Shown here: one piece after another, positions 28,653 to 63,801 of the stretch
Position numbering within the stretch: the stretch's first letter is position 1
Layout of the letters: each line of letters opens with the position of its first letter
From: an uncultured Pseudomonadales bacterium
GTDB taxonomy: Bacteria > Patescibacteriota > Microgenomatia > UBA1400 > PJMF01
NCBI GenBank assembly: GCA_964449995.1
Contig: CAYVBW010000001.1
Coordinates: forward strand, 1,618 to 65,617
DNA: 64,000 bases
Direction of reading: 5' to 3'
Notes under the pieces: model-generated
What the model saw: the letters and a program-made list of their open reading frames with translations, nothing else
Told to the model about the DNA's origin: nothing
Databases searched by the model: none
Position numbers and translations under genes: made by a program

Positions 28653-30440
28653 CTAGCCAATTTTTATGCTTTCTAACTCTTTTACCGATGTGGCCTGTTC
28701 CCAATTTTTATCATCTCTAAACTTAACTAGTCTTGGGAAACGCAAAGCCCTGCCTGCACTATGTAGTGGAGAAACTGTTAACTCATCTGCAGCAATCTCT
28801 ACCACAATTTTAGGAGACACCCAGACATCTGGCTGCAAATCTTTAGGAACATCATACTGCAGAGGTTTTTTTGAAACTTGATATTTATCAGCCTCTTTTT
28901 TAATATACTTAAACTCTTCGTCTGTTAAACCAGTGCCAATTTTAGCAATAGTCTTTAGTTTTTTTTGAGAGGATAACACACCAACTAAAAAAGCCCCAAT
29001 CCCAAATTGACTGCGCTTGCCTTTACCGCGATAGTAACCCATCACCACACAATCCAGGGTATCGCTGAGCTTACCCAATGTCCCCTCACTCTCTTTAATC
29101 TTTACCCAACGCCAACCTTTACGACCAGAACGATACTTAGAATCAATTCTTTTTATAACAGCCCCCTCTAACCCCTTTTCAAGTTGTTGTTCATGATATT
29201 GTTGAATTTCGCCAGGATCTTGAGTTTCAACTACCTCTGTAAGCTTAATTATTCCATTAATCTCAACCACGTTTTGCAAAATTTTTTTTCGATTATTTAA
29301 AGGCTCATCTATTAGTGGCTCATTATTCAAATAAAGAATATCAAACACATAAAACATTAAAGGCACCTTTTCTGACTGACTAACAACTTGATGCTTACGT
29401 TTTCTAGTAATAGTTTCCTGAAAAGTTAGCAGTTTTTTAGATTTAGGATCATAGGCAATTGCCTCAGCATCTAAAATACAATTTTGAGCCTGGATTTGGT
29501 CAATCTCTTCTAAAATCTCAGGAAACATATGGGTAACATTGTCTAAATTTCGAGTAAAAATTTGAACAGGTTTTTCCTTATCAGCTTTATTAATGTGAAT
29601 TTGGACCCTAAGCCCATCATATTTTGGCTCTATTATCACTCTGCCCATTTTTTCTACTATTTCATGCGCAGTATTAAGGCGTTGACACAAAGCGGGCATG
29701 ACAGGAATTCCCAGCGCAACTTGATAATTATCAAAAAAATCTTTAACCTCTGTTTTTGAGCTACGTTGTAAATATTCCTGAGCCAGCTGTCCAATATCAG
29801 CTCTTTTCTGATAAGCCGCTTCAATCTTCTTGCTGTCGCTTTTATTCTGATGCCTAACCCAGGACAAAGCATCAATTATGGTCATTGTTGAAAAGCCCAA
29901 GCGCAGCTTACCCACAATTATTCTGACCACAAATTTAATTGAAGCTGGCTGTAAATTTAACAGCAATTCATAGGTCTTGTTAATTTTTCTATCCTGGGAA
30001 CCTTCTCCTTCCTCATCTGCTATGTCTACCAAAATTTTGTGAACTTCTAAAATGAGCAAGTCTTTACCTAACAATTGAGTATTTTCTAGCAATTGTTCTA
30101 TAGCTAATCCCAAATCTCCTAAATCCTTATTAGCTTTTTTTATTTTTTCCAAATAAAGAGAGTCGTCTTGTTCTTTAAACAAATTAATACTAGGTAAAGA
30201 ATCATCTTGATCCAAGTGATTAAGTAGTTTGGCCAACGCCCTCATGGTTAACTTCTCACTCATATTAAACTCTAAAGATTGATAGCTTGGCACTAACTTC
30301 CCCTGCATTAAGTAACAAACTACAGGAATTTCCTCAGTTTTGAGTTCCTGAAAAAGTTGTGCCAACTGCGCAGTCATTTCCAAACGGGAAGCGGTGACTT
30401 CTAGCTTTTCCAAGTATTGAGCGAAGGTTAAAAATTTCAT
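28653..30440 (-). CDS. ATP-dependent DNA ligase
   Basis: Adenylation motif I KYDGLRVQIH (KxDGxR), motif III/IV/V region EGAVIK, OB-fold C-terminus; 595 aa. Confidence 0.85.
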   Translation of the reverse strand: MKFLTFAQYLEKLEVTASRLEMTAQLAQLFQELKTEEIPVVCYLMQGKLVPSYQSLEFNMSEKLTMRALAKLLNHLDQDDSLPSINLFKEQDDSLYLEKIKKANKDLGDLGLAIEQLLENTQLLGKDLLILEVHKILVDIADEEGEGSQDRKINKTYELLLNLQPASIKFVVRIIVGKLRLGFSTMTIIDALSWVRHQNKSDSKKIEAAYQKRADIGQLAQEYLQRSSKTEVKDFFDNYQVALGIPVMPALCQRLNTAHEIVEKMGRVIIEPKYDGLRVQIHINKADKEKPVQIFTRNLDNVTHMFPEILEEIDQIQAQNCILDAEAIAYDPKSKKLLTFQETITRKRKHQVVSQSEKVPLMFYVFDILYLNNEPLIDEPLNNRKKILQNVVEINGIIKLTEVVETQDPGEIQQYHEQQLEKGLEGAVIKRIDSKYRSGRKGWRWVKIKESEGTLGKLSDTLDCVVMGYYRGKGKRSQFGIGAFLVGVLSSQKKLKTIAKIGTGLTDEEFKYIKKEADKYQVSKKPLQYDVPKDLQPDVWVSPKIVVEIAADELTVSPLHSAGRALRFPRLVKFRDDKNWEQATSVKELESIKIG

Positions 30441-36310: not shown

Positions 36311-36697
36311 ATGTTATTATTATCAATAATTATGAGACCTTTTCTTCATTCTATTGTTAATAACCAGCTTATTTCACAGCAAAACCAAAATGAAGCAACG
36401 CCCATTAAACTCACTGATTACCTCACTCTCAGGGGAGGAGAATCAATTGCGGATGTATACGATCAACCGGCAAAAATTGTTAATTTAATTGTTAGCAATT
36501 TGTTTGTTGTAGCTGGAATTATTATCTTTTTTTTAATTATTGGAGCTGGATTTAGTTTTATTAAAGGCTCAAGCCAAGGTAAAGAAGAGGCGAAAAATCT
36601 TTTAACTGGAGCTGTTATCGGTTTTTTAATTATGTTTTCTGCCTACTGGATCATTCAAATTATTAAATTTGTGACTGGTGCAGATATACCAATTTAA
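36311..36697 (+). CDS. pilin-like two-TM protein, paralog 1 (divergent, lacks full loop motif)
   Basis: TM1-loop-TM2 architecture: ...AGIIIFFLIIGAGFSFIKGSSQGKEEAKNLLTGAVIGFLIM...; first of 7 co-oriented paralogs. Confidence 0.5.
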   Translation: MLLLSIIMRPFLHSIVNNQLISQQNQNEATPIKLTDYLTLRGGESIADVYDQPAKIVNLIVSNLFVVAGIIIFFLIIGAGFSFIKGSSQGKEEAKNLLTGAVIGFLIMFSAYWIIQIIKFVTGADIPI

Positions 36698-36748
36698 GTA
36701 AAATTAAATAATCCTGCCATGATAAATGAAGTTGGCAAATAATTTATA

Positions 36749-37333
36749 ATGAAAAAAATACCTCTTTTTTTTAAAAAAATCACACAAAACTATTCAAAGC
36801 TTTTCCTAATAGTTTTTGCACTACTATTATTTTTTTCCTCTAAGTTGTTGGTAAATGACACATTTGCTTCTGGTAATAATTGTCACTGTGTATGTGATGC
36901 GAGAGGGCGTGATTGTTCTTGGATGGGCCCAGATTGCGGATACTACCAAGGTCGTCTTTGTGAGGCGGGTGATGTGTTTGGAGAGAGTATTTTTGGCACA
37001 ATTCAGCCCCCTGCAGGAGTAAGAGAAATTCAAGAAGAAGTGGGGGCTGGAAACATTGGCATTATTTTATTTGCATCAAACCTAGTAAGACTAGTAACTG
37101 TGGCTGCAGGCATTTGGGTTATGTTTAATTTTATCTCAGCCGGGTGGATTTATATCACATCAGGCGGAGATGCCTCAGCTCACGAAAAAGTATCTGAGAA
37201 AATAACCCAGAGTCTTATAGGCTTAGCCATAGTGGCACTAGCTTATACTATTGCCGGACTTATCGGTCTTTTGATTTTTGGAGATGCCAGCTTTATTCTT
37301 AGGCCCACCTTAACCGGGGTTGGCCAATTTTAA
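36749..37333 (+). CDS. pilin-like two-TM protein, paralog 2 (signal peptide + Cys-rich N-terminal ectodomain)
   Basis: Signal peptide; CHCVCDARGRDCSWMGPDCGYYQGRLCE; core WIYITSGGDASAHEKVSEKITQSLIGLAIVALAY. Confidence 0.55.
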   Translation: MKKIPLFFKKITQNYSKLFLIVFALLLFFSSKLLVNDTFASGNNCHCVCDARGRDCSWMGPDCGYYQGRLCEAGDVFGESIFGTIQPPAGVREIQEEVGAGNIGIILFASNLVRLVTVAAGIWVMFNFISAGWIYITSGGDASAHEKVSEKITQSLIGLAIVALAYTIAGLIGLLIFGDASFILRPTLTGVGQF

Positions 37334-37344
37334 ATTAACAACTT

Positions 37345-37743
37345 ATGAATATATTTTTAAAAATTCTTAATTATTCAGTGTCATTTTCTAGTCAATTTGG
37401 TAATGGATTTCAGCCACCCACAGATGTCTATACCCAAGGCGCTGACGACAGTGGGGAGGTGGTAAATATCTTGACTAATTTTCTTTCTAATTTAATTGGT
37501 CTTCTAACAATCTTTGGGGCTCTGTTTTTCATTGTTAACTTTTTCTTAGGAGCCCTTGCTTGGATTTCAGCTGGTGATGACTCGGGTAAAGTGGAAAAAG
37601 CGAGAACAAAAATAATGCATGGAGTGTTGGGGCTGATTATAATCGTCCTTGCTTATTCAATTATCGGACTTATTGGACAAATTATTGGCATTGACTTAAT
37701 TAATTTAGGAGAAACAATAGAGCAGGTTGTACCAACTTTATAA
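37345..37743 (+). CDS. pilin-like two-TM protein, paralog 3
   Basis: Core LAWISAGDDSGKVEKARTKIMHGVLGLIIIVLAY. Confidence 0.55.
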   Translation: MNIFLKILNYSVSFSSQFGNGFQPPTDVYTQGADDSGEVVNILTNFLSNLIGLLTIFGALFFIVNFFLGALAWISAGDDSGKVEKARTKIMHGVLGLIIIVLAYSIIGLIGQIIGIDLINLGETIEQVVPTL

Positions 37744-37781
37744 AAATGTAAAATTTAAATAATGCTTAATAATATACAAAT

Positions 37782-38216
37782 ATGACACAACACTTTTCTA
37801 TTTTAAATAAATTAATTACCAAACCAATCCAAGCAAGCAATGGCAGGCTTTTTAATCCCGTTATTGGAAGGTTAGGAGATGACCCTGACGCAGCCAGCAC
37901 AGGTAATTTGTTTTTAACTTATGCTATTCATCTGTGGAGAATAGCAATTAATATCGGAGCCTTAATAGTTTTGGCTTTTTACATAGTTGCCGCCTATGAG
38001 TGGCTAACCAGCGGCAGCGACACTCAAGGAGTTGAAAAAGCGCGCAAAAGATTTGTGAACGCCACCATTGGTTTGATTTTATTGGTGGGGTCTTTTGCCA
38101 TCATAGCCTTTATCAGCAATTTATTGTTTGGTGAAGACTTTAATTTACTACACTTAACCTTCCCAGTTGGCCAAAGCACAGCGCCAACAACACCAATTCA
38201 TAATACTGGGATATAA
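37782..38216 (+). CDS. pilin-like two-TM protein, paralog 4
   Basis: Core YEWLTSGSDTQGVEKARKRFVNATIGLILLVGSF. Confidence 0.55.
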   Translation: MTQHFSILNKLITKPIQASNGRLFNPVIGRLGDDPDAASTGNLFLTYAIHLWRIAINIGALIVLAFYIVAAYEWLTSGSDTQGVEKARKRFVNATIGLILLVGSFAIIAFISNLLFGEDFNLLHLTFPVGQSTAPTTPIHNTGI

Positions 38217-38260
38217 CTAAAAAATCAGCTTAATTTTTTCAAAAAAAAGAAAAAAATAAC

Positions 38261-38635
38261 ATGACAAGCAAAACCACAAACTCATTAGCCTCAATTGAGT
38301 TTGATATCGGTCAAGAAGGCAGAGAACAACTCCCTTTTGGTGAAACTGTGGTCACAGAAGGTGGTGGAGCCAGCGCTGTTTCCAGCTTCATCAGCAACTT
38401 ATTAAGAATAAGCATTGTTGTTGCTGCCCTCATTCTTCTCTTTAATTTAATTTTTGCCGGTTTTGAATGGCTTTCTTCTGGAGGAGATAGCAGTAAAATT
38501 GAAAAAGCGCGCACCAGAATGACTCAGTCAATTATTGGCTTTGTAATACTATTTGCCGTAATTGCTATCTTTACTTTCATCCAAGATTTACTTGGGATAA
38601 ACGTTATTACCTTTACCACTGAAGGTGGTGGTTAA
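38261..38635 (+). CDS. pilin-like two-TM protein, paralog 5
   Basis: Core FEWLSSGGDSSKIEKARTRMTQSIIGFVILFAVI. Confidence 0.55.
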   Translation: MTSKTTNSLASIEFDIGQEGREQLPFGETVVTEGGGASAVSSFISNLLRISIVVAALILLFNLIFAGFEWLSSGGDSSKIEKARTRMTQSIIGFVILFAVIAIFTFIQDLLGINVITFTTEGGG

Positions 38636-38807
38636 CCCATTCCGCCTCCAGAGGGTGGGGGTGGAGGAGAAGTAAGACCTCCAGTATATAAATTTTAAAT
38701 AAATTTAAAATAGAAATTAAAAGCCCTATTTTGACATTTATTTTAAAAACCTGATACAATATCAACAACAATTATCAATAATCATCAAATTAATTAAAGG
38801 AGAAAAA

Positions 38808-39209
38808 ATGAATAAAATTAAACAAATTGCTATAGGAGCCGGATCAGCCATTAGCGGAGCGTTGCTGACCGTCAATCCAGTTTTGGCTCAAGAAACCGAA
38901 GTTAAGGTTGAAGTACCCGATGCCTTTGATATAAGTGTGGGCGATCTTTTAACAACTCTTTTGAATTTAGTTTTAGTCATAGCTGCAATTTTGGTTTTTG
39001 CCTACTTGATTTGGGGTGGAATTGAGTGGATTACCTCTGGTGGTGATAAGAGCAAAACAGAGTCAGCCAGAAATAAAATCACAGCTGCCATTGTAGGGCT
39101 GGTGGTTTTGGTTGCCTCCTATGCCATCTTGCAATTAGTCTTGCAAATCCTTGGGATTCAAGGTGGGTTTGAGGGTATGCTTAACTTTGCTACCATAGGT
39201 GCAAAATAA
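38808..39209 (+). CDS. pilin-like two-TM protein, paralog 6 (clear Sec signal peptide ...VLAQE)
   Basis: Strong RBS-like AAAGGAGAAAAA upstream; core IEWITSGGDKSKTESARNKITAAIVGLVVLVASY. Confidence 0.6.
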   Translation: MNKIKQIAIGAGSAISGALLTVNPVLAQETEVKVEVPDAFDISVGDLLTTLLNLVLVIAAILVFAYLIWGGIEWITSGGDKSKTESARNKITAAIVGLVVLVASYAILQLVLQILGIQGGFEGMLNFATIGAK

Positions 39210-39233
39210 TGTCCTTTTAAATAAGCACACAAC

Positions 39234-39266
39234 AAAAAAAACCCTCTGTTAAAGAGGGTTTTTTAA
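39234..39266 (+). terminator. rho-independent terminator after pilin paralog 6
   Basis: AAAAAAACCCTCTGTTAAAGAGGGTTTTTT: 7-bp GC-containing stem, 5-nt loop, T-run. Confidence 0.7.
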
Positions 39267-39354
39267 TAAATTACAGCCGACTTTCCCATTTTTGCTTAAA
39301 AAATAATATAATAAGTCATTAATAAATAATTTGATACATCAGCACTCCTAATTT

Positions 39355-39807
39355 ATGAAAAAAATCATTAAATTTATTAAAATCTTTTGTTTTTTTGCTA
39401 TTATTTTTTTTGTCAGCACCAACAAAACCTTTGCCCAAACCAGAGTTTGGGAAAGTATTAATCAACATTGTGTTGTTGATGGCGTTGCCACTATCCAGGG
39501 TGTATCTTGCTTGATTGCTAATGTTTTATCAGTTGCTCTCACAGTCATTGGTCTGGCTGGATTCATCATGCTAATAGTTGGCTCCTTAAAATGGCTCTTG
39601 TCAGGAGGCAGCTCTCAAAATGTAGACAGCGCTAAAAAAACCATGACTTATGCCGTGGTTGGACTGGTAGTAGCGCTTAGCTCATTTATGATAATCAATC
39701 TAATTGCTCAGTTTACTGGAGTCAATGTTATTACTGAGTTCTTTATTCCTGGAAGCGATACCGGTCTTGAGGGAGGTCCACAATGGGAAGATGTGGGTCG
39801 ACTGTAG
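39355..39807 (+). CDS. pilin-like two-TM protein, paralog 7 (signal peptide, two Cys in ectodomain)
   Basis: Signal peptide ...TFAQT; core LKWLLSGGSSQNVDSAKKTMTYAVVGLVVALSSF. Confidence 0.55.
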   Translation: MKKIIKFIKIFCFFAIIFFVSTNKTFAQTRVWESINQHCVVDGVATIQGVSCLIANVLSVALTVIGLAGFIMLIVGSLKWLLSGGSSQNVDSAKKTMTYAVVGLVVALSSFMIINLIAQFTGVNVITEFFIPGSDTGLEGGPQWEDVGRL

Positions 39808-39856: not shown

Positions 39857-40555
39857 CTACTTTCCAAACCTGCGAATTCTTCCTTGATAGTCTTTTAGTG
39901 CCTTGTCCAACTCCTTGATATCAAAATCAGGCATTAGTACTTTTGTAAAATACAACTCTGAATAAACACTTTGCCAAGGCATAAAGCCTGACAATCTTTG
40001 CTCCCCACCGGTCCTAATTATTAAATCCGGATCAGGAATTCCCTTAGTATCCAAGTATTGCTCAAGCTCATCCGCCCCCAACTGCTCAAGACTCAGTCCA
40101 GCAGCAACCGCCTGCCTAACTGCTCTTACTATCTCATCCCTGCCCCCATAGTTTAAGGCAAAGGTGACAGTAATTTTATAATCTTTTTTATTAATTTCTT
40201 TAAACCGATTAACACTTTCTTGAATATCCTGAGGAAACCGACTCAAATCACCAATTGTTTTCACCCTCACCTTCTCTTTTACCATCTCATCAAAGCCCTC
40301 ACTAAAAGAGAGACGCATCAAGTCCATAATTGCCTCAACCTCAGCCTTATCTCTTTGCCAATTCTCAGTACTAAAAGCCCACAAAGTTAAAAAAGGAATC
40401 CCCAGAGAAATGCAGTGTCGAGTAAGATCTTCAATATTTTCTCGAGCAACTTTCTCATGACCCTTAAAAATCTTAAGCTTGTTTTGTCTAGCCCAACGGC
40501 GATTACCATCCATAATAATAGCGATGTGTTGAGGAAGAGAATTGGTCTTTTTCAT
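39857..40555 (-). CDS. uppS: undecaprenyl/isoprenyl diphosphate synthase (cis-prenyltransferase)
   Basis: HIAIIMDGNRRWA catalytic motif, RTGGEQRLSGF C-terminal motif. Confidence 0.9.
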   Translation of the reverse strand: MKKTNSLPQHIAIIMDGNRRWARQNKLKIFKGHEKVARENIEDLTRHCISLGIPFLTLWAFSTENWQRDKAEVEAIMDLMRLSFSEGFDEMVKEKVRVKTIGDLSRFPQDIQESVNRFKEINKKDYKITVTFALNYGGRDEIVRAVRQAVAAGLSLEQLGADELEQYLDTKGIPDPDLIIRTGGEQRLSGFMPWQSVYSELYFTKVLMPDFDIKELDKALKDYQGRIRRFGK

Positions 40556-40566
40556 AATTTAAAGGC

Positions 40567-41364
40567 TTAAGCTGTTATTTTAGTACCCTTAACTGACTTG
40601 CCACCAATAGCATCAGATAAAGTACCATGAACAATTCCGTCAATAATTAGGCCAGGAATGCCTTGTTTTGCTAATAACAAAGTCTCCTCGACTTTATGCA
40701 ACATACCTCCTGTTACATCTGTCCCGCCTGACCCACCCAAATTTTGGCGGTATTGTCCAATATTCTTACCATTGATTTCTTTAATAGTTTTACCATCAGC
40801 ATCATAAACTCCACTTGTTTGCCCACATTGAATAATTTGTTCAACACGATAATCCTTGGCTTTTAAAGCCAGTCCCAAATACGCAAGCACTTTCTCAGTA
40901 GAAAAAATTGTGCATCCCATCTTTTCATCCAGGATTTGATCGCCATATACAACTGGCAGTAAGCCTTGGGTCAAAAGCAACTCAATCGATTTGGTAAAAA
41001 TATCTGACAGCTTGTGCTCACTAGCCACCATACTGCTTAGAGGAGAAACAGAAACCGCATTAATCTTTTCTTTTAAAAATTTTTTTATCACAATGCGATT
41101 TAGCCTTGCTGCCACGTCTGACACTTCAGCAATCCCGCGATAACTCTGTTTATTAATAATTCCCTTGTGGGTTTGATATTTTTTTGCTGGCACATGTGCA
41201 AAAGAGCCCGCACCATGACCAATTATTAACAATTTCCCCATATTAACAGCTTTTTTTACCTCTGAGGCAATAATATCCAAAGCTTCTTCGTTTACAGTAA
41301 AGGGCTTGTTTTTGTCTGTAATAAGGGAGCCCCCGATTTTAATTAAGATTATTGGTTTATGCAT
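40567..41364 (-). CDS. isopentenyl phosphate kinase (amino-acid-kinase fold)
   Basis: IILIKIGGSLITDK N-terminal glycine-rich AAK motif, HGAGSFAH, C-terminal GGM region; genomic context inside mevalonate operon. Confidence 0.65.
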   Translation of the reverse strand: MHKPIILIKIGGSLITDKNKPFTVNEEALDIIASEVKKAVNMGKLLIIGHGAGSFAHVPAKKYQTHKGIINKQSYRGIAEVSDVAARLNRIVIKKFLKEKINAVSVSPLSSMVASEHKLSDIFTKSIELLLTQGLLPVVYGDQILDEKMGCTIFSTEKVLAYLGLALKAKDYRVEQIIQCGQTSGVYDADGKTIKEINGKNIGQYRQNLGGSGGTDVTGGMLHKVEETLLLAKQGIPGLIIDGIVHGTLSDAIGGKSVKGTKITA

Positions 41365-41908
41365 AGTTTGCCAAATTTTGTTTGATATTTTTTTGTGACA
41401 AGATAATACTCACCCATGGGGCAAAATTGCTCGCTGCTGTTAATAGTTGCTTAAATTGAATCCACCCAACCTCAGACACCTCATCTGGATTTGGCTTAAG
41501 CTCCCCCTTAAAATCCCCAACAAAAACTGTGTCTATTTCATTCTCACTAAAGCCATTGTCAAAACTTACTTGGTATTGAAACTTACCAACTTTACTCAAC
41601 CCTACCCCCTCAATACCTAACTCCTCTTTTAATCGGCGCTTAGCACAATCTAAGTAACTTTCGCCAGGCCGAACATTTCCGCATGCAGTGTTAGCCCACT
41701 GATTGGCTGCCACTATTTTTTTCTTACTTCGTTTTTGAATTAGAACTTCACCTGTAGCATTAAACAAAAAAACACTGCAGGCTCGATGTAATTTACCTAA
41801 GCCCTTATGCGTCTCAATAACATTTTCTGACCCAATCACCTCATCATCTGCATTAACTAGCACAACCCGATCAAGCTTTTGATAAATTTTATTGTTTGTG
41901 CTGTTCAT
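41357..41908 (-). CDS. idi: isopentenyl-diphosphate delta-isomerase, type 1 (Nudix fold)
   Basis: HRACSVFLFN...NTACGNVRPGESYLDCAKRRLKEELGI contains catalytic Cys and Nudix-like GE...RR..EELG box. Confidence 0.7.
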   Translation of the reverse strand: MNSTNNKIYQKLDRVVLVNADDEVIGSENVIETHKGLGKLHRACSVFLFNATGEVLIQKRSKKKIVAANQWANTACGNVRPGESYLDCAKRRLKEELGIEGVGLSKVGKFQYQVSFDNGFSENEIDTVFVGDFKGELKPNPDEVSEVGWIQFKQLLTAASNFAPWVSIILSQKNIKQNLANYA

Positions 41909-41948
41909 AATTTTTAAAACCGCCCCTATTTAACAAGGCTAAAAAAAC

Positions 41949-42245
41949 TCATGCTTGCTTAACTTTTTTTACTTTAAGCTGATATTCTAATGGATCAGAA
42001 TCATTTTTTTTAGAACCTTTTCTTAACACACACCTAACCTTATCCCCTATCTCCAGCCTTTGATGACCAACTCCCATTAACTCTTTCCTATTTTTCCCAA
42101 AGGCTACAATTGCCAAAGAATAGGGAGCCGCCCTCAAGTGCTCACTGCCAGCAACCCTAATATAGGTGCTTACCACAACCTGTCCAGTTTTGCCCAAAAA
42201 ACTCTTCCATTGTTTATTGAGTCTTGTGTATTTAGCCGGATGCAT
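41949..42245 (-). CDS. DUF35-family OB-fold protein (thiolase/HMG-CoA synthase scaffold partner)
   Basis: 98-aa OB-fold-sized ORF immediately downstream of thiolase and HMGCS as in archaeal thiolase/HMGCS/DUF35 complexes. Confidence 0.55.
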   Translation of the reverse strand: MHPAKYTRLNKQWKSFLGKTGQVVVSTYIRVAGSEHLRAAPYSLAIVAFGKNRKELMGVGHQRLEIGDKVRCVLRKGSKKNDSDPLEYQLKVKKVKQA

Positions 42246-42281
42246 AATTTTATTTTATATTAATTGAATAATATTAAATTG

Positions 42282-43388
42282 CTAGCCAACTACATGAACT
42301 ACAGCTGTAGCTCCAGATCCTCCCACGTTATGGGCCAAGCCTAATTTATAACGCTCATCCTCAATTTGCTGAGCTAAATAAACAACCTGTTTGATGCCGG
42401 TAGCACCGATTGGATGACCAAATGCTTTTAAACCACCTGATAAGTTAATCACAACTTTTCCATTCAATTTTGTTTCGTGGTTGAGCGTAGCCCGACCACC
42501 CATTCCTTTGTCAAAAAAACCCAAGTCCTCGATCGCCAAAATCTCTGCAATAGTAAAACAATCGTGAACCTCTGCCAACTGTATTTGATCTGGCCTAACA
42601 TCAGCCATCTGATAAGACTTTTGTGCTGCTTGCACCGTTGCTCTCAAGGTAGTTAAATCTTTTCTACTAGCTAAGTCCAAAGCATCTTGAGCATGACCAA
42701 AACCTAAAATTTTGGGCTTATTTTTCATCTTGCGGCCTGTTAGTATCACAGCTGAAGCCCCGTCTGAAATTGGCGAGCAATCTAGCAATCTAAGAGGATC
42801 TGCCACTAAAGGACTTTGTGAGACTTGATCTAAAGTAAATTCTCGATGAAATTGAGCCAAAGGGTTCTCCAAGGCATGTGTGTGATTTTTTACAGCTACA
42901 GCAGACAGCATTTCCCTAGATGTTTTAAACTTTTCTGTATGCACTTGGGCCAGTAAGGCATACAAGCCAGGGAAAGTTGAGCCATTTTCAGCATCATGAT
43001 TAGCTGCCATAGCAAGAATTCGGGTGGCATTGCTCGCAGTTGTATCTGTCATCTTTTCGGCCCCAACTACCAAAGCAGTTTGACAATACCCTGACAAAAT
43101 CGCCTGTTCTGCAGCCAATAAAGCCAACCCCCCAGAAGCGCAAGCTCCCTCCACTCTCATGCTGGGAGGAAAATGATTAAAAAACTGACTTACCAAAGCA
43201 TTGAGATGAAGTTGATTGTTAAATTCTCCAGGGGCTTTGCTGGCAACAAAAACTTGGTCTATTTGTCTAGAATCAATACCAGCATTTTTAACAGAACCCC
43301 CAATTGCTTCTTGAAACAAATCAGCCAACCCTTTTTCCCAGAGTTCTCCGACCTTAGTTGTATGATGACCCGCAATAGTAATTTGCAT
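42282..43388 (-). CDS. acetyl-CoA C-acetyltransferase (archaeal-type thiolase)
   Basis: Thiolase fold with active-site Cys region VEGACASGGLALL, C-terminal GHPIGATG and NVGGSGA motifs. Confidence 0.8.
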   Translation of the reverse strand: MQITIAGHHTTKVGELWEKGLADLFQEAIGGSVKNAGIDSRQIDQVFVASKAPGEFNNQLHLNALVSQFFNHFPPSMRVEGACASGGLALLAAEQAILSGYCQTALVVGAEKMTDTTASNATRILAMAANHDAENGSTFPGLYALLAQVHTEKFKTSREMLSAVAVKNHTHALENPLAQFHREFTLDQVSQSPLVADPLRLLDCSPISDGASAVILTGRKMKNKPKILGFGHAQDALDLASRKDLTTLRATVQAAQKSYQMADVRPDQIQLAEVHDCFTIAEILAIEDLGFFDKGMGGRATLNHETKLNGKVVINLSGGLKAFGHPIGATGIKQVVYLAQQIEDERYKLGLAHNVGGSGATAVVHVVG

Positions 43389-43413
43389 TGTATTTAACCT
43401 AGCTAAAAACTAA

Positions 43414-44484
43414 TCAGTGATACCTGTCTTTTGTAAGTCTGGCATACTGCTGATAACTAATTGGTTGTAAATTTTTAATTTTGTCTAAAGTAAAATCCTG
43501 CCATTTTTTTCTCTGCTTGGGCAAATTATCGGTAGTCTCAAAAACAAAACTATCTGCTCCAGCACCAGAGCCATAGGCTGTTACAAAAATCTTTTTTCCG
43601 GCTGGAGCTTGGTCTAAAATAGCTGCCAAAGCCAAGGGCACACTCCCAGCATAAGTATTGCCTACCTTTTTTACAATCAAACCCGGCTTAAGTTGTTTTG
43701 AAGAAAATCCCAACTGCTTGGCAGCTTGTAGGGGAAATTTGCCATTGGGTGTATGAAAAACACAGTAATCAAAGTCTTCAGCCTTAAGTTTCATTTCTTT
43801 TAAAAGCATTTTGCTGGATTTAATCACATGATAAAAATAAGCTGGCTTACCAGTGAATCTTCCTCCGTGGTGAGGAAAATCCTCCCCGGACTTTCTCCAA
43901 AAATCAGGGGTGTCGCTAGCAACTGATGAAGTTGCCAATAATTTCACCAGCAGGTTGGTAGAACCAAAAATAAAAGCTGCAGCCCCAGCTGCAGCAGTGT
44001 ACTCCAGCGCATCTCCTGGCTTGGCCTGAGCTACATCTGCCCCAATAGCCAAGGCATATTTAGCAAAGTCACTTAAAATATAGCTAGCACAAATCTGCAT
44101 TCCCTGAGTCCCTGCCTTGCAGGCAAATTGCAAATCCGCCATGGCCAATTCTTCTGGCAAGCCCAACGCGCCCGCAACCACAGAACCTGAGGGCTTAACT
44201 GCATAGGGATGACTTTCACTACCAACAAACAAAGCACTAATTTTTTTACTACCAAAATTTTTAGTAATCCCGGCTCTAGCTAGAGCTTGCCAGGCTGCTG
44301 AAGTTGAAAGAGTGATTGTGTCCTCATCAAAATCTGGCACTGTTTTTTGCTCAACCAACAAAGAATTACTCACTGTACCGATCTCTTTGTTGTGAGCCAT
44401 TTCCAACTCTTTTATAGACAAAGACCAGCTTGGCAACTCGGTGCCATAAGCCACAATTCCCACTGGTTTATTAATCACTGGCAT
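43414..44484 (-). CDS. hydroxymethylglutaryl-CoA synthase (archaeal/short type)
   Basis: Initiation-condensing-enzyme fold; ADLQFACKAGTQGM catalytic Cys region; TAYGSGAGADSFVFE C-terminal motif. Confidence 0.8.
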   Translation of the reverse strand: MPVINKPVGIVAYGTELPSWSLSIKELEMAHNKEIGTVSNSLLVEQKTVPDFDEDTITLSTSAAWQALARAGITKNFGSKKISALFVGSESHPYAVKPSGSVVAGALGLPEELAMADLQFACKAGTQGMQICASYILSDFAKYALAIGADVAQAKPGDALEYTAAAGAAAFIFGSTNLLVKLLATSSVASDTPDFWRKSGEDFPHHGGRFTGKPAYFYHVIKSSKMLLKEMKLKAEDFDYCVFHTPNGKFPLQAAKQLGFSSKQLKPGLIVKKVGNTYAGSVPLALAAILDQAPAGKKIFVTAYGSGAGADSFVFETTDNLPKQRKKWQDFTLDKIKNLQPISYQQYARLTKDRYH

Positions 44485-44544
44485 AATCTTTTAATTTTTA
44501 TTTAATGTATATTTTTTAATAATTTGCTAAAAATTTCCCCAAGC

Positions 44545-45852
44545 CTATCTAGCCAGTTTCTGATGAGCGCAGGCCAAGCTTTGCGTAGCTAAAGCAGCCA
44601 GTCCAGATAGCTCCCCAGACAAAACCGCAACCGCCACAACACCTGCTAGCTCTTCGGCCCTAATCTCCCTACCAAAGATTAATTTTCGAGCTTGCTGGAA
44701 TGGAGTTAAGCCACTTCCTCCTCCAACCACTCCGACATTAACATTAGGCATATTTAGTGCGACATAAAGCGAATTATTAGGCTTTTGTTCAACCAACAGA
44801 CTAGCCTGAGAACACTCAACAACATGAGCCATATCTTGGCCTGTAGCCAAAAATAGTCCGGCAACCATGTTGGCAGCATGCATGTTTAAAGAATCTGCCC
44901 CAGCTAAATTGGAGCCAACAACATTTTTCCAATAATAAGTTTTATAAAAATCCTGTACGCCAACTTTTAATACAGACTGTAAAATTTTTTTATTCAACAG
45001 GACCTCAGCCTGAACACTGTATCCCCTGCCCAACAAACGATTAATTGCAGAAGTTTTTTTATCAACACACATATTCCCAGACAAAGAGATTAATTCTATG
45101 TTGGGATATGAGGAAATTACTTCTTTCCAAGCTTGACCCAGCGCTAAGGTCACCATATTCATACCCATGGCCTGGTCAGTGTCAAAAACAAAGCGAGCAT
45201 AAACCGCCCTACCAACAACCCAAGCATGACAATCCTTTAACTTTAAATGCTGGCTGGTCTTTTCACATACTTGCTTAATTTTTTTTAAACCACCCTTATT
45301 TTCTATCCAATCCACAAATTCCTTTGCCTCAAAATGATTAAGAAAGCCAAAAACAGGGGCTCTAGTCATACCTATTTTTTCAACAAATACTCGCGTTGGT
45401 TTGGTTTTACTTAAAGCCTTCATGCCCCTGGCAACACTAGCAACCAAAGCTCCTTCTGTGGTAGCCAGCGGGATAAACAGTTCTTGTTGGAACGGTTCAC
45501 CGCCATCAATTGTCATCTGCACAGAAGCTGGACCAGCCACCCCCACAGGTATCTCCACACTACCCAACAAATTTTCGCAGTTTTTTTGTTCAGCCTGCTT
45601 TACATCTATTTTGTTAATCTTAAAAAAATTAGAAAAATCAAGTTGATCGGTAGTCCCACTTCCCCCATCCTTCTTATGCATAAATTTTCTTCTCTTTAGA
45701 TAATCAATCAAGATAGCCTGACGTTGCAAAATTTTTTCTTGAGAAGATCCTACGAAGTTTTTTAAATTAAGACTGATCATAAATTTTGTTTCTTTCCACA
45801 AAAACCAACACCCTGTTTGAAGGGCAATAAATATAGTCGTGTTTTGTGCCAA
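44545..45852 (-). CDS. hydroxymethylglutaryl-CoA reductase
   Basis: EIPVGVAGP, TTEGALVAS, DAMGMNMV and GTVGG-like motifs diagnostic of HMGR; real start probably an internal Met. Confidence 0.85.
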   Translation of the reverse strand: MAQNTTIFIALQTGCWFLWKETKFMISLNLKNFVGSSQEKILQRQAILIDYLKRRKFMHKKDGGSGTTDQLDFSNFFKINKIDVKQAEQKNCENLLGSVEIPVGVAGPASVQMTIDGGEPFQQELFIPLATTEGALVASVARGMKALSKTKPTRVFVEKIGMTRAPVFGFLNHFEAKEFVDWIENKGGLKKIKQVCEKTSQHLKLKDCHAWVVGRAVYARFVFDTDQAMGMNMVTLALGQAWKEVISSYPNIELISLSGNMCVDKKTSAINRLLGRGYSVQAEVLLNKKILQSVLKVGVQDFYKTYYWKNVVGSNLAGADSLNMHAANMVAGLFLATGQDMAHVVECSQASLLVEQKPNNSLYVALNMPNVNVGVVGGGSGLTPFQQARKLIFGREIRAEELAGVVAVAVLSGELSGLAALATQSLACAHQKLAR

Positions 45853-45903
45853 AAATCATTCAAGCTCATGATAAAATAAGATTTTGAACCAAATAATTGC
45901 TCA

Positions 45904-48153
45904 TTGGTAATGAACACACAATACAACCACAAACAACACGAAAAAAACATCTATCAGCTCTGGGAAGAAAGCAATTCTTTTAATCCAGATAGCAATCCCA
46001 AACCCTCTGATGATAGGTTTTGCATAATCATGCCTCCACCCAATGCCAACGATCCCCTCCACATTGGACACGCCATGTTTGTCACTATTGAAGACATCTT
46101 GATTCGATATCATCGAATGCTGGGCGACGACACACTCTGGCTTCCCGGCACAGACCACGCAGGAATCGAAACCCAGTTTGTTTTTGAAAAAAAGCTTAAA
46201 AAAGAGGGCAAAAGCAGGTTCAGCTTTGACCGCAAAACACTCTACCAAAAAATTTGGAACTACGTTCAAAAAAACTCTGATTTATCCATTAACCAAATGA
46301 AGCAATTAGGAGCTAGCGCAGACTGGAGTAGGTTTAGTTTTATGCTAGATGAACCAATTATAGAGATGGTTTTAGAAACTTTTAAAAAACTACATGATAA
46401 AAAACTAATTTATCGAGATTTAAAACTGGTCAACTTCAGCCCAGCTGCCGGCACAGCCTACAGCGACTTGGAAATCAAGCATGAGGAAAGAAACACCCCG
46501 CTTTATTACATTCAATATGGCCCACTTGTGTTGGCTACCACTCGTCCCGAAACTATTTTCGGAGATGTTGCGGTGGCCGTACACCCAGACGACAAACGCT
46601 ACCAAAAATGGATTAACAAAGAAATAAAAATCTCCAACCCCGTTAAAACATTCTTGGTAAAAGTTGTTGCCGATGATAGTGTTGATATGGATTTTGGCAC
46701 CGGAGCTGTAAAGATTACCCCATTTCACGATCATAGTGACTTTGCTATTTGGCAAAGACACAAAAAAGGGTTGCGCCAACCCCAACAAGTAATTGACTTT
46801 GACGGACGAATGATGGAGCCAGCTGGCAAATATACCGGAATGAAAGTGGCTCAGGCTAGAGAAGCCGTGGTTGGTGACATGCAATCCATGAATCTAATTA
46901 AGAAAGTTGACCGCGACTATAGACATACAATAGCGCTGTGTTATAAAACCAAATCTGTCATTGAACCACTCCCCTTGTCACAGTTTTTTATTAAAGTTGA
47001 GCCACTAGTCAAACCCGTAATCAAAGCTCTTAATTCAGGAGAGATCAAGGTTTATGGAGCTGGTCATGATAAGATTTTAAAACACTGGCTAACCAACCTC
47101 AAAGATTGGAATATTTCAAGGCAAGTAGTTTGGGGCATTCAAATGCCAGTTTGGTATCAAATAAAAAATTATGAGGACCAAATTACGGTTGGTTATTTAG
47201 ACAAAGACAAGTCATTTGTTAGTAAAACCCTTAAAGAGGCGCTAAAAAACACAACTTTAGAAAAAATTATTAACGGATTACAAACCCTCAGAGCCAGCCG
47301 GTCTGTTCCCTACAAAGTGAGTCAAGCCAACCCTAAAAAAGGTGATTGGATTCAAGAAACTGATACTTTTGACACCTGGTTTTCTTCCAGCCAATGGCCT
47401 GTCACAGCTCTTAAAAACGCACAGCCAGGAGACTTTGAGCGCTTCTACCCCACCCAGGTGATGGAAACAGGCTATGATATTCTGCCGTTCTGGGTAATGA
47501 GAATGCTAATGATGGGACACTTTATGACAGGAAAGTTTCCTTTTAAAAATATTTACCTTCATGGGCTGATTAGAGACTCAAAGGGCAACAAAATGAGTAA
47601 AAGCAAAGGCAATGTCGTGAACCCATTGCAAGTAACCGAAAAATATGGAACTGACGCCCTTAGAATGGCATTAGTAATTCGATCGTCAATGGGTTTAGAC
47701 AAATCCATTGGAGAACCCGATTTTAAAGCCGGACGCAACCTAACTAACAAGCTTTGGAATGCTGCCCGATTTATTCTCCTCAACTTAAACGAAGAAGGAC
47801 TACAGAATGAGGCCTTAAAAGAATTGGATATTCAGTTTAAAAATAAACTTGATGATGTTGTGGGACAAATCACTCAACAGATTAATCAATTCCAAATTGG
47901 ACTAGCGGCAGAAACGCTTTACACAGAGTTTTGGCATTGGTTTTGCGACCAGGCCATAGAGCAATCCAAACAACAAAAAATATCTCAAAAGAACATTGTT
48001 GCAGGCCTACTTGTTTTCTTAAAACTCGCTCACCCATTTACCCCCTATGTGACAGAGGCTGTCTGGCAAATTTTACAAAAAGAAAAACTACTAAAGGACA
48101 GCGGTTTATTTGAGAAAGAGTTATTAATTACCTCACCGTGGCCAAAGGCATAG
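45904..48153 (+). CDS. valS: valyl-tRNA synthetase (short form lacking C-terminal coiled coil)
   Basis: PPPNANDPLHIGHA (HIGH), LPGTDHAGIETQ, editing domain TTRPETIFGD, KMSKSKGN. Confidence 0.9.
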   Translation: MVMNTQYNHKQHEKNIYQLWEESNSFNPDSNPKPSDDRFCIIMPPPNANDPLHIGHAMFVTIEDILIRYHRMLGDDTLWLPGTDHAGIETQFVFEKKLKKEGKSRFSFDRKTLYQKIWNYVQKNSDLSINQMKQLGASADWSRFSFMLDEPIIEMVLETFKKLHDKKLIYRDLKLVNFSPAAGTAYSDLEIKHEERNTPLYYIQYGPLVLATTRPETIFGDVAVAVHPDDKRYQKWINKEIKISNPVKTFLVKVVADDSVDMDFGTGAVKITPFHDHSDFAIWQRHKKGLRQPQQVIDFDGRMMEPAGKYTGMKVAQAREAVVGDMQSMNLIKKVDRDYRHTIALCYKTKSVIEPLPLSQFFIKVEPLVKPVIKALNSGEIKVYGAGHDKILKHWLTNLKDWNISRQVVWGIQMPVWYQIKNYEDQITVGYLDKDKSFVSKTLKEALKNTTLEKIINGLQTLRASRSVPYKVSQANPKKGDWIQETDTFDTWFSSSQWPVTALKNAQPGDFERFYPTQVMETGYDILPFWVMRMLMMGHFMTGKFPFKNIYLHGLIRDSKGNKMSKSKGNVVNPLQVTEKYGTDALRMALVIRSSMGLDKSIGEPDFKAGRNLTNKLWNAARFILLNLNEEGLQNEALKELDIQFKNKLDDVVGQITQQINQFQIGLAAETLYTEFWHWFCDQAIEQSKQQKISQKNIVAGLLVFLKLAHPFTPYVTEAVWQILQKEKLLKDSGLFEKELLITSPWPKA

Positions 48154-56052: not shown

Positions 56053-57171
56053 TTAATTATTTACTCTAAAAGGCATGACAATATAAGTAAAATTATCTTT
56101 ATTTTTTATGTTAAAAGAAGCTGGTTTTAACTGCTCATTCATGCAAAACACAACCTCTTTAGGATTGGTGTTATTTAAAAAATCTAATAAATAGCGAATA
56201 TCAAAAGCAATTTCCTTATCCAACTCATCATCCATCTGTGAAAGCGTTAAAATTTCTCCGCTGTATTCTCCGTATGATGGTGAATTGGAAGAGATTAGTA
56301 GTTTATTTTCCCTAAGTTCAAATTTAACAATATTAGACGATTCTCTAGCTAAAATAAAAGCCCTTTGCAGCTCTTCTTTGAGAATTTCTCCGTCAATTTC
56401 GACTTGTGTTTCAAAATTTTCGGGAATTATTTTTTTATAAGGTGGATACTCTCCTTCAATCAATCTAACGAATATTTCATTTTGATCAACCTCTATTTTG
56501 ATCTGCTTTAACTCCTCATCCACCTGTATTTTGATTACGTCCACATCACTCTGATCTACAATTCTACAAACTTCTTCAAAAGATTTTATTGGAATCAATA
56601 GCCTTTTTTTTACTTGAGATTCTAGATGTGGATATTTTAAAACCGATAACCTAAACCCATCCGTTGTAGCAACTTCTAAACCGCTTTTATTAAAATCAAA
56701 CATAATTGTGGTGAGAATTGGCCTGACTTGATCCAAACTAGCCGCATATCCAGTCATTTCCAGCACTTCTTTTAAAACACTTGTTGGAATTTCAATTTTG
56801 GGACCTGAAACTTTTGGAAATTCGGGATATTCCGATGGCTCTTGAGCTGGTATTTTAACCCTACTACTACCAGACTCTAACTCTATTGCCTCTTTTTTTA
56901 TGTTTATAAATACTTCTTCATCGCTAAAAGAGTTAATCAAATCTTTCAACATTAATCCAGGAATTACTAGAGAGGCTTTGTGTTTATTATTTTTGAGTTC
57001 AGACTTTGTTTTTATACCTAAATATAAGTCTGTGGCGGCTAAAGTTAAATTATTTTTGTCAACATTAATTAGAACAGAGCTTAAAATGGGTAGCTGAGGA
57101 TTACTAGGAATAGATTTCTGAACATTTTTGATAGCTTTTTTTAAACTTAAAAGATTAAACTCTATTTTCAT
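56053..57171 (-). CDS. dnaN: DNA polymerase III beta sliding clamp
   Basis: 372 aa, three-domain beta-clamp length, immediately downstream of dnaA. Confidence 0.85.
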   Translation of the reverse strand: MKIEFNLLSLKKAIKNVQKSIPSNPQLPILSSVLINVDKNNLTLAATDLYLGIKTKSELKNNKHKASLVIPGLMLKDLINSFSDEEVFINIKKEAIELESGSSRVKIPAQEPSEYPEFPKVSGPKIEIPTSVLKEVLEMTGYAASLDQVRPILTTIMFDFNKSGLEVATTDGFRLSVLKYPHLESQVKKRLLIPIKSFEEVCRIVDQSDVDVIKIQVDEELKQIKIEVDQNEIFVRLIEGEYPPYKKIIPENFETQVEIDGEILKEELQRAFILARESSNIVKFELRENKLLISSNSPSYGEYSGEILTLSQMDDELDKEIAFDIRYLLDFLNNTNPKEVVFCMNEQLKPASFNIKNKDNFTYIVMPFRVNN

Positions 57172-62651: not shown

Positions 62652-62778
62652 ACCAAATAGTATAAATCAATTATTGTTGATTAACAAACCAGACTCTAAA
62701 ACTAAAAAACAATTTATAGCTTTTAACTGTTTTCTAAAATAATTTCGCGATAAACAAGAATTCTTAAGCAAATAAAAA

Positions 62779-63801
62779 TTAAACTTTAGAACTAATTTCT
62801 ATTGGGTCAATAATTTTGCCAGACAACTCTATTTTTTGGGAGTCAAACTCCAGTCCGTCCTTTTTAATATTTAAAAGATATTCACCATTGCTGAGTTGTT
62901 GGGAGATGTTGAACTGTCCCAAGGAGTTGCTTTTAACAGCGGTAATTGTTTGTCCTTGGGCATTTTGCACCTCTATTAAGGCTCCACCAACCAACTCTTT
63001 GTTGGGAGTAACAACCATTCCCACTAGTCGATTAGGGTGGGTGGGTTTGCTGGGAAAAGGAAGGTCTTGGTTTTGGCTAGCTGTTTTGATTGATTCATCT
63101 GGGTTTTGATCAGTTTGGGGATTGTTTTTTTTAGGGCTGGGTTTAAGAGCTTCGGACGTATTGGCGAGTTGAATATTTTGACTAAGAGTTGACTCCTGTT
63201 TTGCAACTGGTGGCGCTGAAAAAACCACTGCATCGGTGGGTGCGGGCTTAATTTTTCTGGCCCTTACTTGTAGGTTGGGCTTGGTGGCTTTTCGAACAGG
63301 GTTTTGTTCAACTTGAACTTGTTGAAAATTTTGTAGTATTTGATTTACGCGTTGATCTTGGGTTAAGTCAAACTCATCTTTGTTGTCCGTGGTTGGTTCT
63401 ACTGATTTTAAAAATTGTTGGATTTTATCTCTTTTAATATGAGAGGTGTCAATTTCTGTAGTGGGGGTGGTGTCTTGTTCTCCGGTTTTGTGCTGAAACG
63501 CATCTGGGACTTTGGGTTTTTTTTGCCAATAAAATTTAGTTGGTTTATATAGGGTTTTGATGAAGGTAATAATCCAGTGGTCTAGGGGTCTTTCTTCAAT
63601 GGGTACAAAAGCAGCTGCAAAACCAAGTGCAAAAAAAGTTATAGATAAGGGCCACTTTATAAAATCCGGCAGATTGGTTTTGTAAAAAACAAAAGCAACA
63701 ATGGTTCCAAGCAATATCATGGCAAACTGCTTAAGGGTCATGTTGCCTATTAGGTGAAACCTATAGCCGGTGATGTCTTGTGGTATCGGGTGTTCTCTCA
63801 T
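62779..63801 (-). CDS. PrgI-family (VirB3-like) two-TM protein with long C-terminal extracellular extension (Ig/carboxypeptidase-regulatory-like beta domain)
   Basis: N-terminus HPIPQDITGYRFHLIGNMTLKQFAMILLG matches PrgI-family IPKDI..Y..K.IGPFT.RQ signature followed by two TM helices; C-terminal GEYLLNIKKDGLEF beta-rich region. Confidence 0.55.
   Translation of the reverse strand: MREHPIPQDITGYRFHLIGNMTLKQFAMILLGTIVAFVFYKTNLPDFIKWPLSITFFALGFAAAFVPIEERPLDHWIITFIKTLYKPTKFYWQKKPKVPDAFQHKTGEQDTTPTTEIDTSHIKRDKIQQFLKSVEPTTDNKDEFDLTQDQRVNQILQNFQQVQVEQNPVRKATKPNLQVRARKIKPAPTDAVVFSAPPVAKQESTLSQNIQLANTSEALKPSPKKNNPQTDQNPDESIKTASQNQDLPFPSKPTHPNRLVGMVVTPNKELVGGALIEVQNAQGQTITAVKSNSLGQFNISQQLSNGEYLLNIKKDGLEFDSQKIELSGKIIDPIEISSKV

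Follow-up and report, generated by a model that had tools for sequence, protein, structure and literature searches.

How can a bacterium supply its cell-wall lipid carrier from a mevalonate operon that holds the two ends of the pathway and not its middle? The question is raised by seven minus-strand open reading frames (ORFs) at positions 39857-45852 of the window, by which we mean the whole analyzed stretch of 64,000 nucleotides from contig CAYVBW010000001.1. They are predicted to lead from acetyl-CoA to mevalonate and from isopentenyl phosphate to undecaprenyl diphosphate; mevalonate kinase (MVK) and a decarboxylase are not among them. We consider it probable (roughly 0.6) that the locus is a functional mevalonate/undecaprenyl operon of a Candidate Phyla Radiation (CPR) bacterium, with the kinase and decarboxylase steps encoded elsewhere in the genome. 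CPR bacteria have been reported to carry archaeal acetoacetyl-CoA thiolase (AACT), 3-hydroxy-3-methylglutaryl-CoA (HMG-CoA) synthase (HMGS), class I HMG-CoA reductase (HMGR), type 1 isopentenyl diphosphate (IPP) isomerase (IDI-1) and isopentenyl phosphate kinase (IPK), with IPK usually beside IDI-1 and in synteny with a cis-isoprenyl diphosphate synthase (Hoshino & Gaucher 2018, Mol Biol Evol, PMC6107057). By its gene content the operon is thus a further instance of that published cluster and no new pathway, to which it adds three minor unreported traits: an excision scar, a DUF35 protein without its zinc ribbon, and a shifted catalytic acid in HMGR. A first-pass annotation of this DNA, which did not recognize the host as a CPR bacterium, had implied that such an operon is rare among bacteria; this is overstated, since a CPR cluster with uppS synteny was already in the literature. 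The features of the locus are:

44545..45780, minus strand: class I HMGR, 411 aa (PF00368, TIGR00533; frame open to TTG 45852)
43414..44484, minus strand: archaeal-type HMGS, 356 aa (TIGR00748, NF003274, 6ESQ chain I)
42282..43388, minus strand: archaeal-type acetoacetyl-CoA thiolase, 368 aa (NF004720, 7YVY, 6ESQ chain A)
41949..42245, minus strand: mini-DUF35, the OB-fold half without zinc ribbon, 98 aa (ortholog profile, fold search)
41357..41908, minus strand: type 1 (Nudix) IPP isomerase, IDI-1, 183 aa (NF002995, TIGR02150, 3HYQ)
41357..41364, minus strand: IDI/IPK overlap, 8 nt (junction comparison with relatives L103, L119 and L101)
40567..41364, minus strand: IPK, 265 aa (NF040647, 3K4O, 3LL9)
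39857..40555, minus strand: undecaprenyl-diphosphate synthase (UppS, a cis-prenyltransferase), 232 aa (TIGR00055, 3WYI)
45781..45909, no strand: divergent intergenic region between the HMGR gene and leuS, 129 nt (presumed site of the operon promoter)

The layout proposed in the first-pass annotation (seven minus-strand genes, small gaps, an 8-nt IDI/IPK overlap) stands with its coordinates, and the gaps along the operon measure 11, -8 (the overlap), 40, 36, 25 and 60 nt. All seven gene identities hold as well, six by family models and the DUF35 protein by an ortholog profile and a fold search. The operon had also been called fused to uppS, which is right as operon linkage (the gap is 11 nt) and wrong as a gene fusion. 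The stretch 45781-45909 is the only sizeable non-coding sequence upstream of the seven genes, and the operon promoter presumably lies there. Scans for promoter-like sites (18, versus 15.9 +/- 4.4 in shuffled sequence) and for terminator-like sites (12, versus 6.8 +/- 3.0) neither support nor contradict co-transcription.

In the pathway that we propose, acetyl-CoA would be converted to HMG-CoA by the archaeal-type thiolase and HMGS, probably joined by the zinc-ribbon-less DUF35 protein, and HMG-CoA to mevalonate by the class I HMGR. Mevalonate would then be phosphorylated by MVK, and a phosphomevalonate decarboxylase would yield isopentenyl phosphate; neither gene is in the window. IPK would convert isopentenyl phosphate to IPP, IDI-1 would equilibrate IPP with dimethylallyl diphosphate (DMAPP), and UppS would make undecaprenyl diphosphate for cell-wall synthesis, using a farnesyl diphosphate (FPP) primer whose synthase gene also is not in the window. 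Relatives keep a kinase and a decarboxylase between IDI and IPK; in the genus of the window the decarboxylase would have been excised in frame, the missing steps presumably being supplied from elsewhere in the genome. The formation of a thiolase/HMGS/DUF35 complex, the isopentenyl phosphate route and the presence of the missing genes elsewhere are what we infer here, whereas the gene identities, catalytic residues, synteny, deletion scar and purifying selection described below are read from the sequences.

The comparison of cluster architecture drew on 80 class I HMGR loci together with contigs that carry the closest homologs; the cluster genes were typed by BLAST against typed references assigned by NCBIfam. 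Fourteen of the 15 CPR clusters that lack IPK and are not cut by a contig end have the order HMGR-HMGS-thiolase-OB-kinase-kinase-decarboxylase(-IDI)-UppS, where OB is the DUF35 protein; the exception, L083, has one kinase. The eight IPK-bearing clusters, perhaps three independent lineages, never have two kinases of the GHMP family: there is one in L026 and L121, and none in the window, its sister species L101, L021, L103, L119 and L120. Because the second kinase occurs only in IPK-less clusters, the gene content supports a route from MVK through phosphomevalonate decarboxylase to IPK in IPK-bearing CPR. Decarboxylation of mevalonate phosphate followed by IPK had been suggested from the window's own gene set, and it thereby gains comparative support (zero or one GHMP kinase in 8/8 IPK-bearing CPR clusters). 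To our knowledge this is the first gene-content argument for IPK replacing phosphomevalonate kinase (PMVK) in CPR, and it bears on the role of CPR IPK left open by PMC6107057.

The decarboxylase found next to IPK in relatives is in line with such a route. It matches 6N0X/Y/Z best, with 229 bits, while no other diphosphomevalonate decarboxylase entry exceeds 203; judging from PMC9254496, 6N0X/Y/Z would be the phosphomevalonate decarboxylase of Anaerolinea. Among family models, the CPR decarboxylase passes the cutoff of TIGR01240 with 259 bits and scores about 190-200 bits with the phosphomevalonate decarboxylase model NF040704, below the cutoff of 475.

The order of the lower genes varies among the IPK-bearing loci. 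L026 has OB-kinase-decarboxylase-IPK. In L121 the lower module is complete (8382-12539, IDI-kinase-decarboxylase-IPK-UppS), and an upper module is absent from the 10 kb around it. In L120, IDI-decarboxylase-IPK (9168-11492) directly follows leuS without HMGR-HMGS-thiolase-OB. The upper and lower modules of the mevalonate pathway are therefore separable in this group. In L021, the closest relative in the genome collection, the slot between IDI and IPK that elsewhere is used by the decarboxylase holds a 206-aa Nudix-like ORF (14227-14847) with weak MutT-family matches. L105, judged a close relative of L021 by an OB protein about 93% identical, has a mevalonate-kinase-like gene after IDI. The close relatives L103 and L119 have IDI-decarboxylase-IPK-UppS and the same flanks as the window, namely YidC-KhpA-RNaseH-DUF4012-L25-x-LeuRS on one side and pilins-sigma-SMC-Carb_kinase-DUF5654-Fic-ligase on the other.

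The junction between IDI and IPK suggests how the window came to lack this gene. In L103 and L119 the IDI stop and the decarboxylase ATG overlap, by 11 and 14 nt respectively; in L103 the end of IDI reads TAT GGC GCA TAA and the start of the decarboxylase ATG GCG CAT AAC. The window reads AAC T-ATG-CAT-AAA-CCA-ATA-ATC, and its IPK begins M-H-K-P-I-I, versus M-K-K-P-I in all relatives. The same junction is present in the sister species L101 (81-94% amino-acid identity). Since the junction in the window and L101 merges an L103-type decarboxylase start with IPK, we interpret the 8-nt IDI/IPK overlap as the scar of an in-frame excision of a mevalonate-(di)phosphate decarboxylase gene, after which IPK would use the former decarboxylase start codon, joined in frame at about IPK codon 3. 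A remnant of a GHMP gene at the junction was ruled out, as the two genes overlap and tblastn returned no match.

We used the divergence between the window and L101 (dS of 0.64-1.26 over the seven operon genes) to follow selection since the deletion. The dN/dS values are 0.107 for HMGR, 0.069 for HMGS, 0.083 for the thiolase, 0.135 for the OB protein, 0.115 for IDI, 0.023 for IPK and 0.133 for UppS, compared with 0.066 for LeuRS and 0.088 for L25. All seven genes have been under purifying selection at housekeeping level since the deletion, and the upper-pathway genes are therefore still used. A pseudogenized upper module is ruled out by values of 0.07-0.13. The genus of the window may thus be regarded as a natural deletion variant in which the decarboxylase was excised and the flanking genes remained under selection, and as a case from whose full gene content one could learn if a split pathway is workable for an episymbiont.

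HMGS passes the archaeal equivalog TIGR00748 (403 bits, cutoff 353), scores 443 bits with NF003274, and matches 6ESQ chain I with 348 bits, versus 179 and 167 bits for PhlA-type subunits. Its catalytic tetrad E-C-H-N is conserved (GSESHPY, FACKAGT, VFHTPNGKF, GNTYAGS), and all four residues align with 6ESQ chain I. The thiolase belongs to the archaeal/SCP-x-like branch and falls just below the cutoff of NF004720 (419.8 bits, cutoff 420); it matches the acetoacetyl-CoA thiolase 7YVY with 257 bits and 6ESQ chain A with 251, whereas PhlC reaches 38 bits. It has the motifs CxS (as ACASG), HDxF (VHDCFT) and GHx (GHPIG). The HMGS tetrad and these three thiolase motifs are the criteria that separate mevalonate-pathway complexes from repurposed Phl/Muc acyltransferases (PMC12960953).

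The 98-aa ORF between the thiolase and IDI is less obvious from its own sequence, which gives a sub-threshold match to PF01796 (E=0.01) and three homologs in a word-based search. We built a profile from 20 positional orthologs in related CPR clusters, and this profile matches 6ESQ_E (labelled 'Pfam DUF35' in the thiolase/HMGCS complex of Methanothermococcus) with E=9.2e-17; individually, 15/20 of these orthologs match PF01796 (best E=2.9e-16). An AlphaFold model (pLDDT 73.8) has two N-terminal helices and five strands. In a fold search with this model, 6ESQ chains F/E/G came first (TM 0.60-0.63), followed by MucC, BbsA and ChsH2, the top 13 hits all being DUF35 proteins. The ORF is a DUF35-type OB-fold protein. 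In the archaeal protein, which has 130 aa, the match spans residues 38-128, and the N-terminal helix is matched faintly. A rubredoxin-like zinc ribbon is present in all characterized DUF35 subunits (PMC2954200; PMC12960953), and it is absent in all 22 CPR orthologs examined, in which no Cys is conserved (the window protein has a single non-conserved Cys). That the gene is real follows from its conserved position after the thiolase gene and from its dN/dS of 0.135; 24 of the 26 CPR clusters with a thiolase gene have it at this position, and none was detected in L048 and L073. The protein probably holds thiolase and HMGS together, as gene adjacency and purifying selection support, and without its zinc ribbon it would define a minimal version of this scaffold. 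Our literature search found no paper combining DUF35 with CPR.

HMGR matches PF00368 with 339 bits and is assigned to class I, the NADPH type (TIGR00533, 323 bits), versus class II (TIGR00532, 26 bits), so it is not the Firmicutes-type class II enzyme for which the first-pass annotation had proposed a check. With a class I score that does not reach the equivalog cutoff of 441.8, it is a divergent member. In the PDB it matches 6HR7, an archaeal class I enzyme, best (240 bits), with human HMGR also among the best. As the start codon, ATG 45780 is more likely than TTG 45852, since gene calls for ENA contigs and for all close relatives, L101 included, give the resulting 411-aa form. A cluster of 100%-identical HMGR proteins (P0004) shows a single ENA contig because gene callers differ on this codon. 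We take the catalytic residues of class I HMGR to be E559, K691, D767 and H866 in human numbering. Glu (CENLLG), Lys (VDKK) and His (CAHQ) of the window enzyme align with the catalytic residues. At the position of the catalytic Asp (motif G-D-AMGMN) it has Gln203, and Asp202 stands one residue earlier (45172-45177); the motif DAMGMNMV, quoted from this gene at first reading, does not occur in it, the sequence being D-Q-AMGMNMV. The catalytic Asp is kept in 47/47 archaeal and 12/12 other bacterial class I HMGRs that we fetched, and in only 9/21 CPR HMGRs. Among the best 120 HMGR homologs, a non-acidic residue at this position is directly preceded by D/E in 69/70 cases. The catalytic acid seems to have moved by one residue in a subclade of CPR. 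No report of such a move was found in the literature searched, and it poses a testable question of enzymology.

The lower-pathway assignments rest on family models and conserved residues alike. IDI-1 passes NF002995 (149 bits, cutoff 127) and TIGR02150 (106.2 bits, cutoff 105.8), and comparison with the isomerase 3HYQ shows that the catalytic Cys76, E-N-E and two His ligands are conserved. In C76-G77-N78 (41675-41683), Asn78 occupies the position of the third His metal ligand (C-G-H in enterobacterial IDI), and Asn is found there in 10/10 CPR orthologs checked. IPK scores 190 bits with NF040647 (cutoff 120), and at most 45 bits with the FomA, ProB, ArgB and PyrH models; among archaeal IPK structures, it matches 3K4O with 112 bits and 3LL9 with 109. 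Its GHGAGSFAH aligns with VHGGGAFGH of M. jannaschii, including the conserved His, and KIGGS and DVTGGM are conserved. The equivalog score, the conserved His and the motifs KxGGS and DVTGGM thus set aside the possibility, raised earlier, that this gene might be a generic amino-acid kinase. No other gene of the cluster is as constrained as IPK, which is 94% identical to that of L101, 78% to that of L103 and 79% to that of L021. UppS scores 240 bits with TIGR00055 (cutoff 110) and 192 bits to the S. aureus enzyme 3WYI, with which its motifs MDGNRRWA and RTGGEQRLS align.

Several results weigh against a working pathway completed from elsewhere in the genome. The pathway-gene search covered the window +/-10 kb, about 84 kb and less than 10% of the genome. 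As had been noted for the window itself, neither Pfam lists nor tblastn with 11 baits (E<=1) gave a GHMP kinase or decarboxylase in this region, and a scan of all frames of the window found no GHMP motif; the Pfam lists also contain no family of the methylerythritol phosphate (MEP) pathway, aconitase-X, UbiD or trans-prenyltransferases. Orthologs in the window and L103 are 52-78% identical, so that, with the L103 decarboxylase as bait, an ortholog (expected at about 55-65%) ought to come among the first matches. Among the best 120 of 4,760 matches (down to 43% identity), none could be attributed to the window organism by the source databases, whose listings, calibrated with the window IPK, are only partly reliable. 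The two best candidates by provenance belong to other CPR organisms with clusters of their own, and the matches listed include no pair of decarboxylases that resembles the window/L101 pair and has the right provenance. For MVK, a weak test with a 67-aa fragment of a relative's kinase and exact 8-residue patterns found none in the four JGI samples holding the organism; the scan found eight loci, all in other samples, of which L111 is a full-length kinase in an unrelated context. We regard this as moderate evidence against a close decarboxylase ortholog in the window organism, with nothing firm on MVK. In addition, HMGR carries Gln where the catalytic Asp is expected, and the function of CPR IPK is termed uncharacterized in PMC6107057. 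On the other side, an unlinked MVK is normal in this family, since L103, L119 and L120 keep the decarboxylase without a kinase in the cluster, and mevalonate should still be consumed because the upper module is under selection.

CPR bacteria are generally host-dependent, and the pathway could be truly interrupted, with the decarboxylase and perhaps MVK lost and either intermediates (mevalonate, mevalonate phosphate, isopentenyl phosphate or isoprenol) exchanged with a host or partner or non-homologous enzymes used, while IPK-IDI-UppS would independently salvage a C5 phosphate. This we consider unlikely, if worth keeping in view. The excision scar, the failure to trace a decarboxylase ortholog to the organism among the best 120 of 4,760 matches despite its expected high rank, the separate occurrence of the modules in L120 and L121, the low dN/dS of IPK (0.023) and the dependence of CPR on hosts all speak for it. 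However, upper genes with dN/dS of 0.07-0.13 long after the deletion (dS 0.7-1.25) are hard to explain if mevalonate leads nowhere, over 90% of the genome lies outside the ~84 kb seen, the best 120 of 4,760 bait matches would miss a divergent or xenologous decarboxylase, and the FPP synthase needed by UppS is also outside the window, so that pathway genes are scattered. It is similarly doubtful that the middle of the pathway has been lost, and not moved, while the mevalonate-producing and IPK-IDI-UppS modules stay under strong selection; if true, a host or partner would supply or convert a C5/C6 intermediate, or an undescribed enzyme would act.

A classical set of MVK, PMVK and diphosphomevalonate decarboxylase (DPMD) encoded elsewhere could make IPP directly, leaving IPK as a salvage or regulatory kinase for isopentenyl phosphate, as proposed for plants, and as no obligatory step of the pathway. 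Homologs of MVK, PMVK and DPMD do occur across CPR, where the role of IPK has been called enigmatic (PMC6107057), a two-kinase and decarboxylase set is present in many CPR relatives, and the second Nudix hydrolase between IDI and IPK in L021 resembles the Nudix/IPK cycle of plants. We nevertheless find this improbable: the second kinase is absent from 8/8 IPK-bearing clusters fetched and two-kinase sets occur only in IPK-less ones, IPK has the lowest dN/dS of the operon, the IPK-adjacent decarboxylase of relatives is closest to the 6N0X series (229 versus 203 bits), and the best 120 of 4,760 matches include no close decarboxylase for the organism. It is scarcely credible that HMGS, thiolase and DUF35 have been repurposed as a PhlABC/MucABC-type Friedel-Crafts acyltransferase, or that the cluster is a recent transfer from archaea, even though bacterial HMGS/ACAT/DUF35 homologs with acyltransferase function exist (PMC12960953) and all three proteins are archaeal-type by family model. 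The HMGS E-C-H-N and thiolase HDxF residues, lost in Phl/Muc enzymes, are intact in the window, the archaeal complex is matched with far better scores than the Phl subunits, and the trio adjoins HMGR, IDI, IPK and UppS. Against transfer, the nearest HMGR homologs are all from CPR, flanking synteny is family-wide, and the operon GC of about 0.39-0.41 is close to that of the remaining window. The acyltransferase is effectively refuted by the intact catalytic residues, and recent transfer was rejected on the homologs and synteny. A functional CPR mevalonate/undecaprenyl operon, with its kinase and decarboxylase steps encoded elsewhere, remains our preferred reading.

By its sequence the host belongs to the ultrasmall bacteria of the Patescibacteria (CPR) and is related to Pacebacteria/Microgenomates, because the window combines bacterial 23S rRNA with seven tandem PF18895 pilins and nearest named homologs from CPR. 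The window starts with the 5' end of a bacterial 23S rRNA and a spacer with tRNA-Ala, the end of the rRNA operon lying at 1-558. For HMGR and for the relatives' decarboxylase, the closest homologs with a name come from Microgenomates, Pacebacteria, Woesebacteria, Shapirobacteria, Gottesmanbacteria or the 'Patescibacteria group'. Assemblies in ENA, JGI, Logan and NCBI have proteins identical to those of the window on 24 or more contigs. Several public metagenome-assembled genome records that clearly have CPR-type clusters and, in L119-type contexts, pilin arrays (L021, L022, L023, L026, L027) are titled 'uncultured Pseudomonadales bacterium' or 'Gammaproteobacteria', and these titles look like placeholder or erroneous taxonomy.

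Other genes of the window were recorded along with the operon. Directly downstream of uppS and convergent with it, seven tandem paralogous small membrane proteins (36311-39807, plus strand) match PF18895, a type IV secretion system (T4SS) pilin family, five of them reaching the Pfam cutoff; the position of the array is kept in L101, L103 and L119. A hairpin between two of the pilin genes (39236-39264) has an A-run before and a T-run after it. Further T4SS-related genes are found at 59279-63801 (minus strand, adjoining dnaA), encoding a VirB4-like ATPase (DUF87/AAA_10/TraG P-loop) and TraC-like and PrgI-like proteins, and a separate 777-aa TrwB/VirD4-like coupling protein is encoded at 20876-23209 (minus strand). 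The T4SS of Patescibacteria is the subject of a 2025 preprint. The genes dnaN (56053-57171) and dnaA (57515-59047) are on the minus strand, with rpmH-rnpA-yidD-yidC-khpA on the far side of dnaN, and the cumulative GC skew has its minimum at about 56-58 kb, consistent with a replication origin there. Adjoining the end of the rRNA operon, 1403-6538 (plus strand) encodes a 1,711-aa protein with DUF2341, Gly_rich_2 and Laminin_G_3 domains, probably a large surface protein. A tRNA-Ile with the anticodon UAU lies at 13865-13939 (plus strand); in most bacteria AUA is decoded by a lysidine-modified CAU tRNA. The DNA ligase at 28653-30440 (minus strand; N, M and C domains of DNA_ligase_A) is of the ATP-dependent archaeal/eukaryotic type and not of the NAD-dependent bacterial type, and such a ligase is also present in L107 and L119.

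Among known systems, the mevalonate operons of Gram-positive cocci comprise mvaS/mvaA, the latter encoding a class II HMGR, and mvaK1-mvaD-mvaK2. The window operon is like them in that it would supply the IPP needed for undecaprenyl phosphate, in a host where the MEP pathway may be missing. It differs in its class I HMGR, archaeal-type HMGS and thiolase, DUF35, IPK and uppS, and in having no PMVK or DPMD in the cluster.

The alternative pathway of haloarchaea and Chloroflexi uses MVK, phosphomevalonate decarboxylase and IPK (Dellas et al. 2013 eLife, PMC3857490; VanNice et al. 2014, as cited in PMC9254496). IPK is present in the window, and L026 and L121 carry one GHMP kinase, the decarboxylase and IPK; unlike in that pathway, the kinase and decarboxylase were not found in the window +/-10 kb. 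With the archaeal thiolase/HMGCS/DUF35 complex (a 2018 PNAS study, as cited in PMC12960953) the window shares three adjacent genes with conserved catalytic residues, and 6ESQ is the best solved match for HMGS and DUF35 and the second, by 6 bits, for the thiolase. However, the CPR DUF35 proteins are 95-101 aa as aligned, versus about 130 aa, and they lack the rubredoxin-like zinc ribbon carried by the archaeal, PhlB and MucC proteins.

The mevalonate clusters of CPR themselves come closest. In PMC6107057, MVK, PMVK and DPMD are co-distributed with the early genes, whereas the window +/-10 kb is without a GHMP gene; the decarboxylase slot of the window appears to carry a deletion scar, and its DUF35 gene has no mention in that paper. 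The window operon nevertheless shares with these clusters the same gene set, the adjacency of IPK and IDI-1, the synteny with a cis-prenyltransferase, and the lineage of the host.

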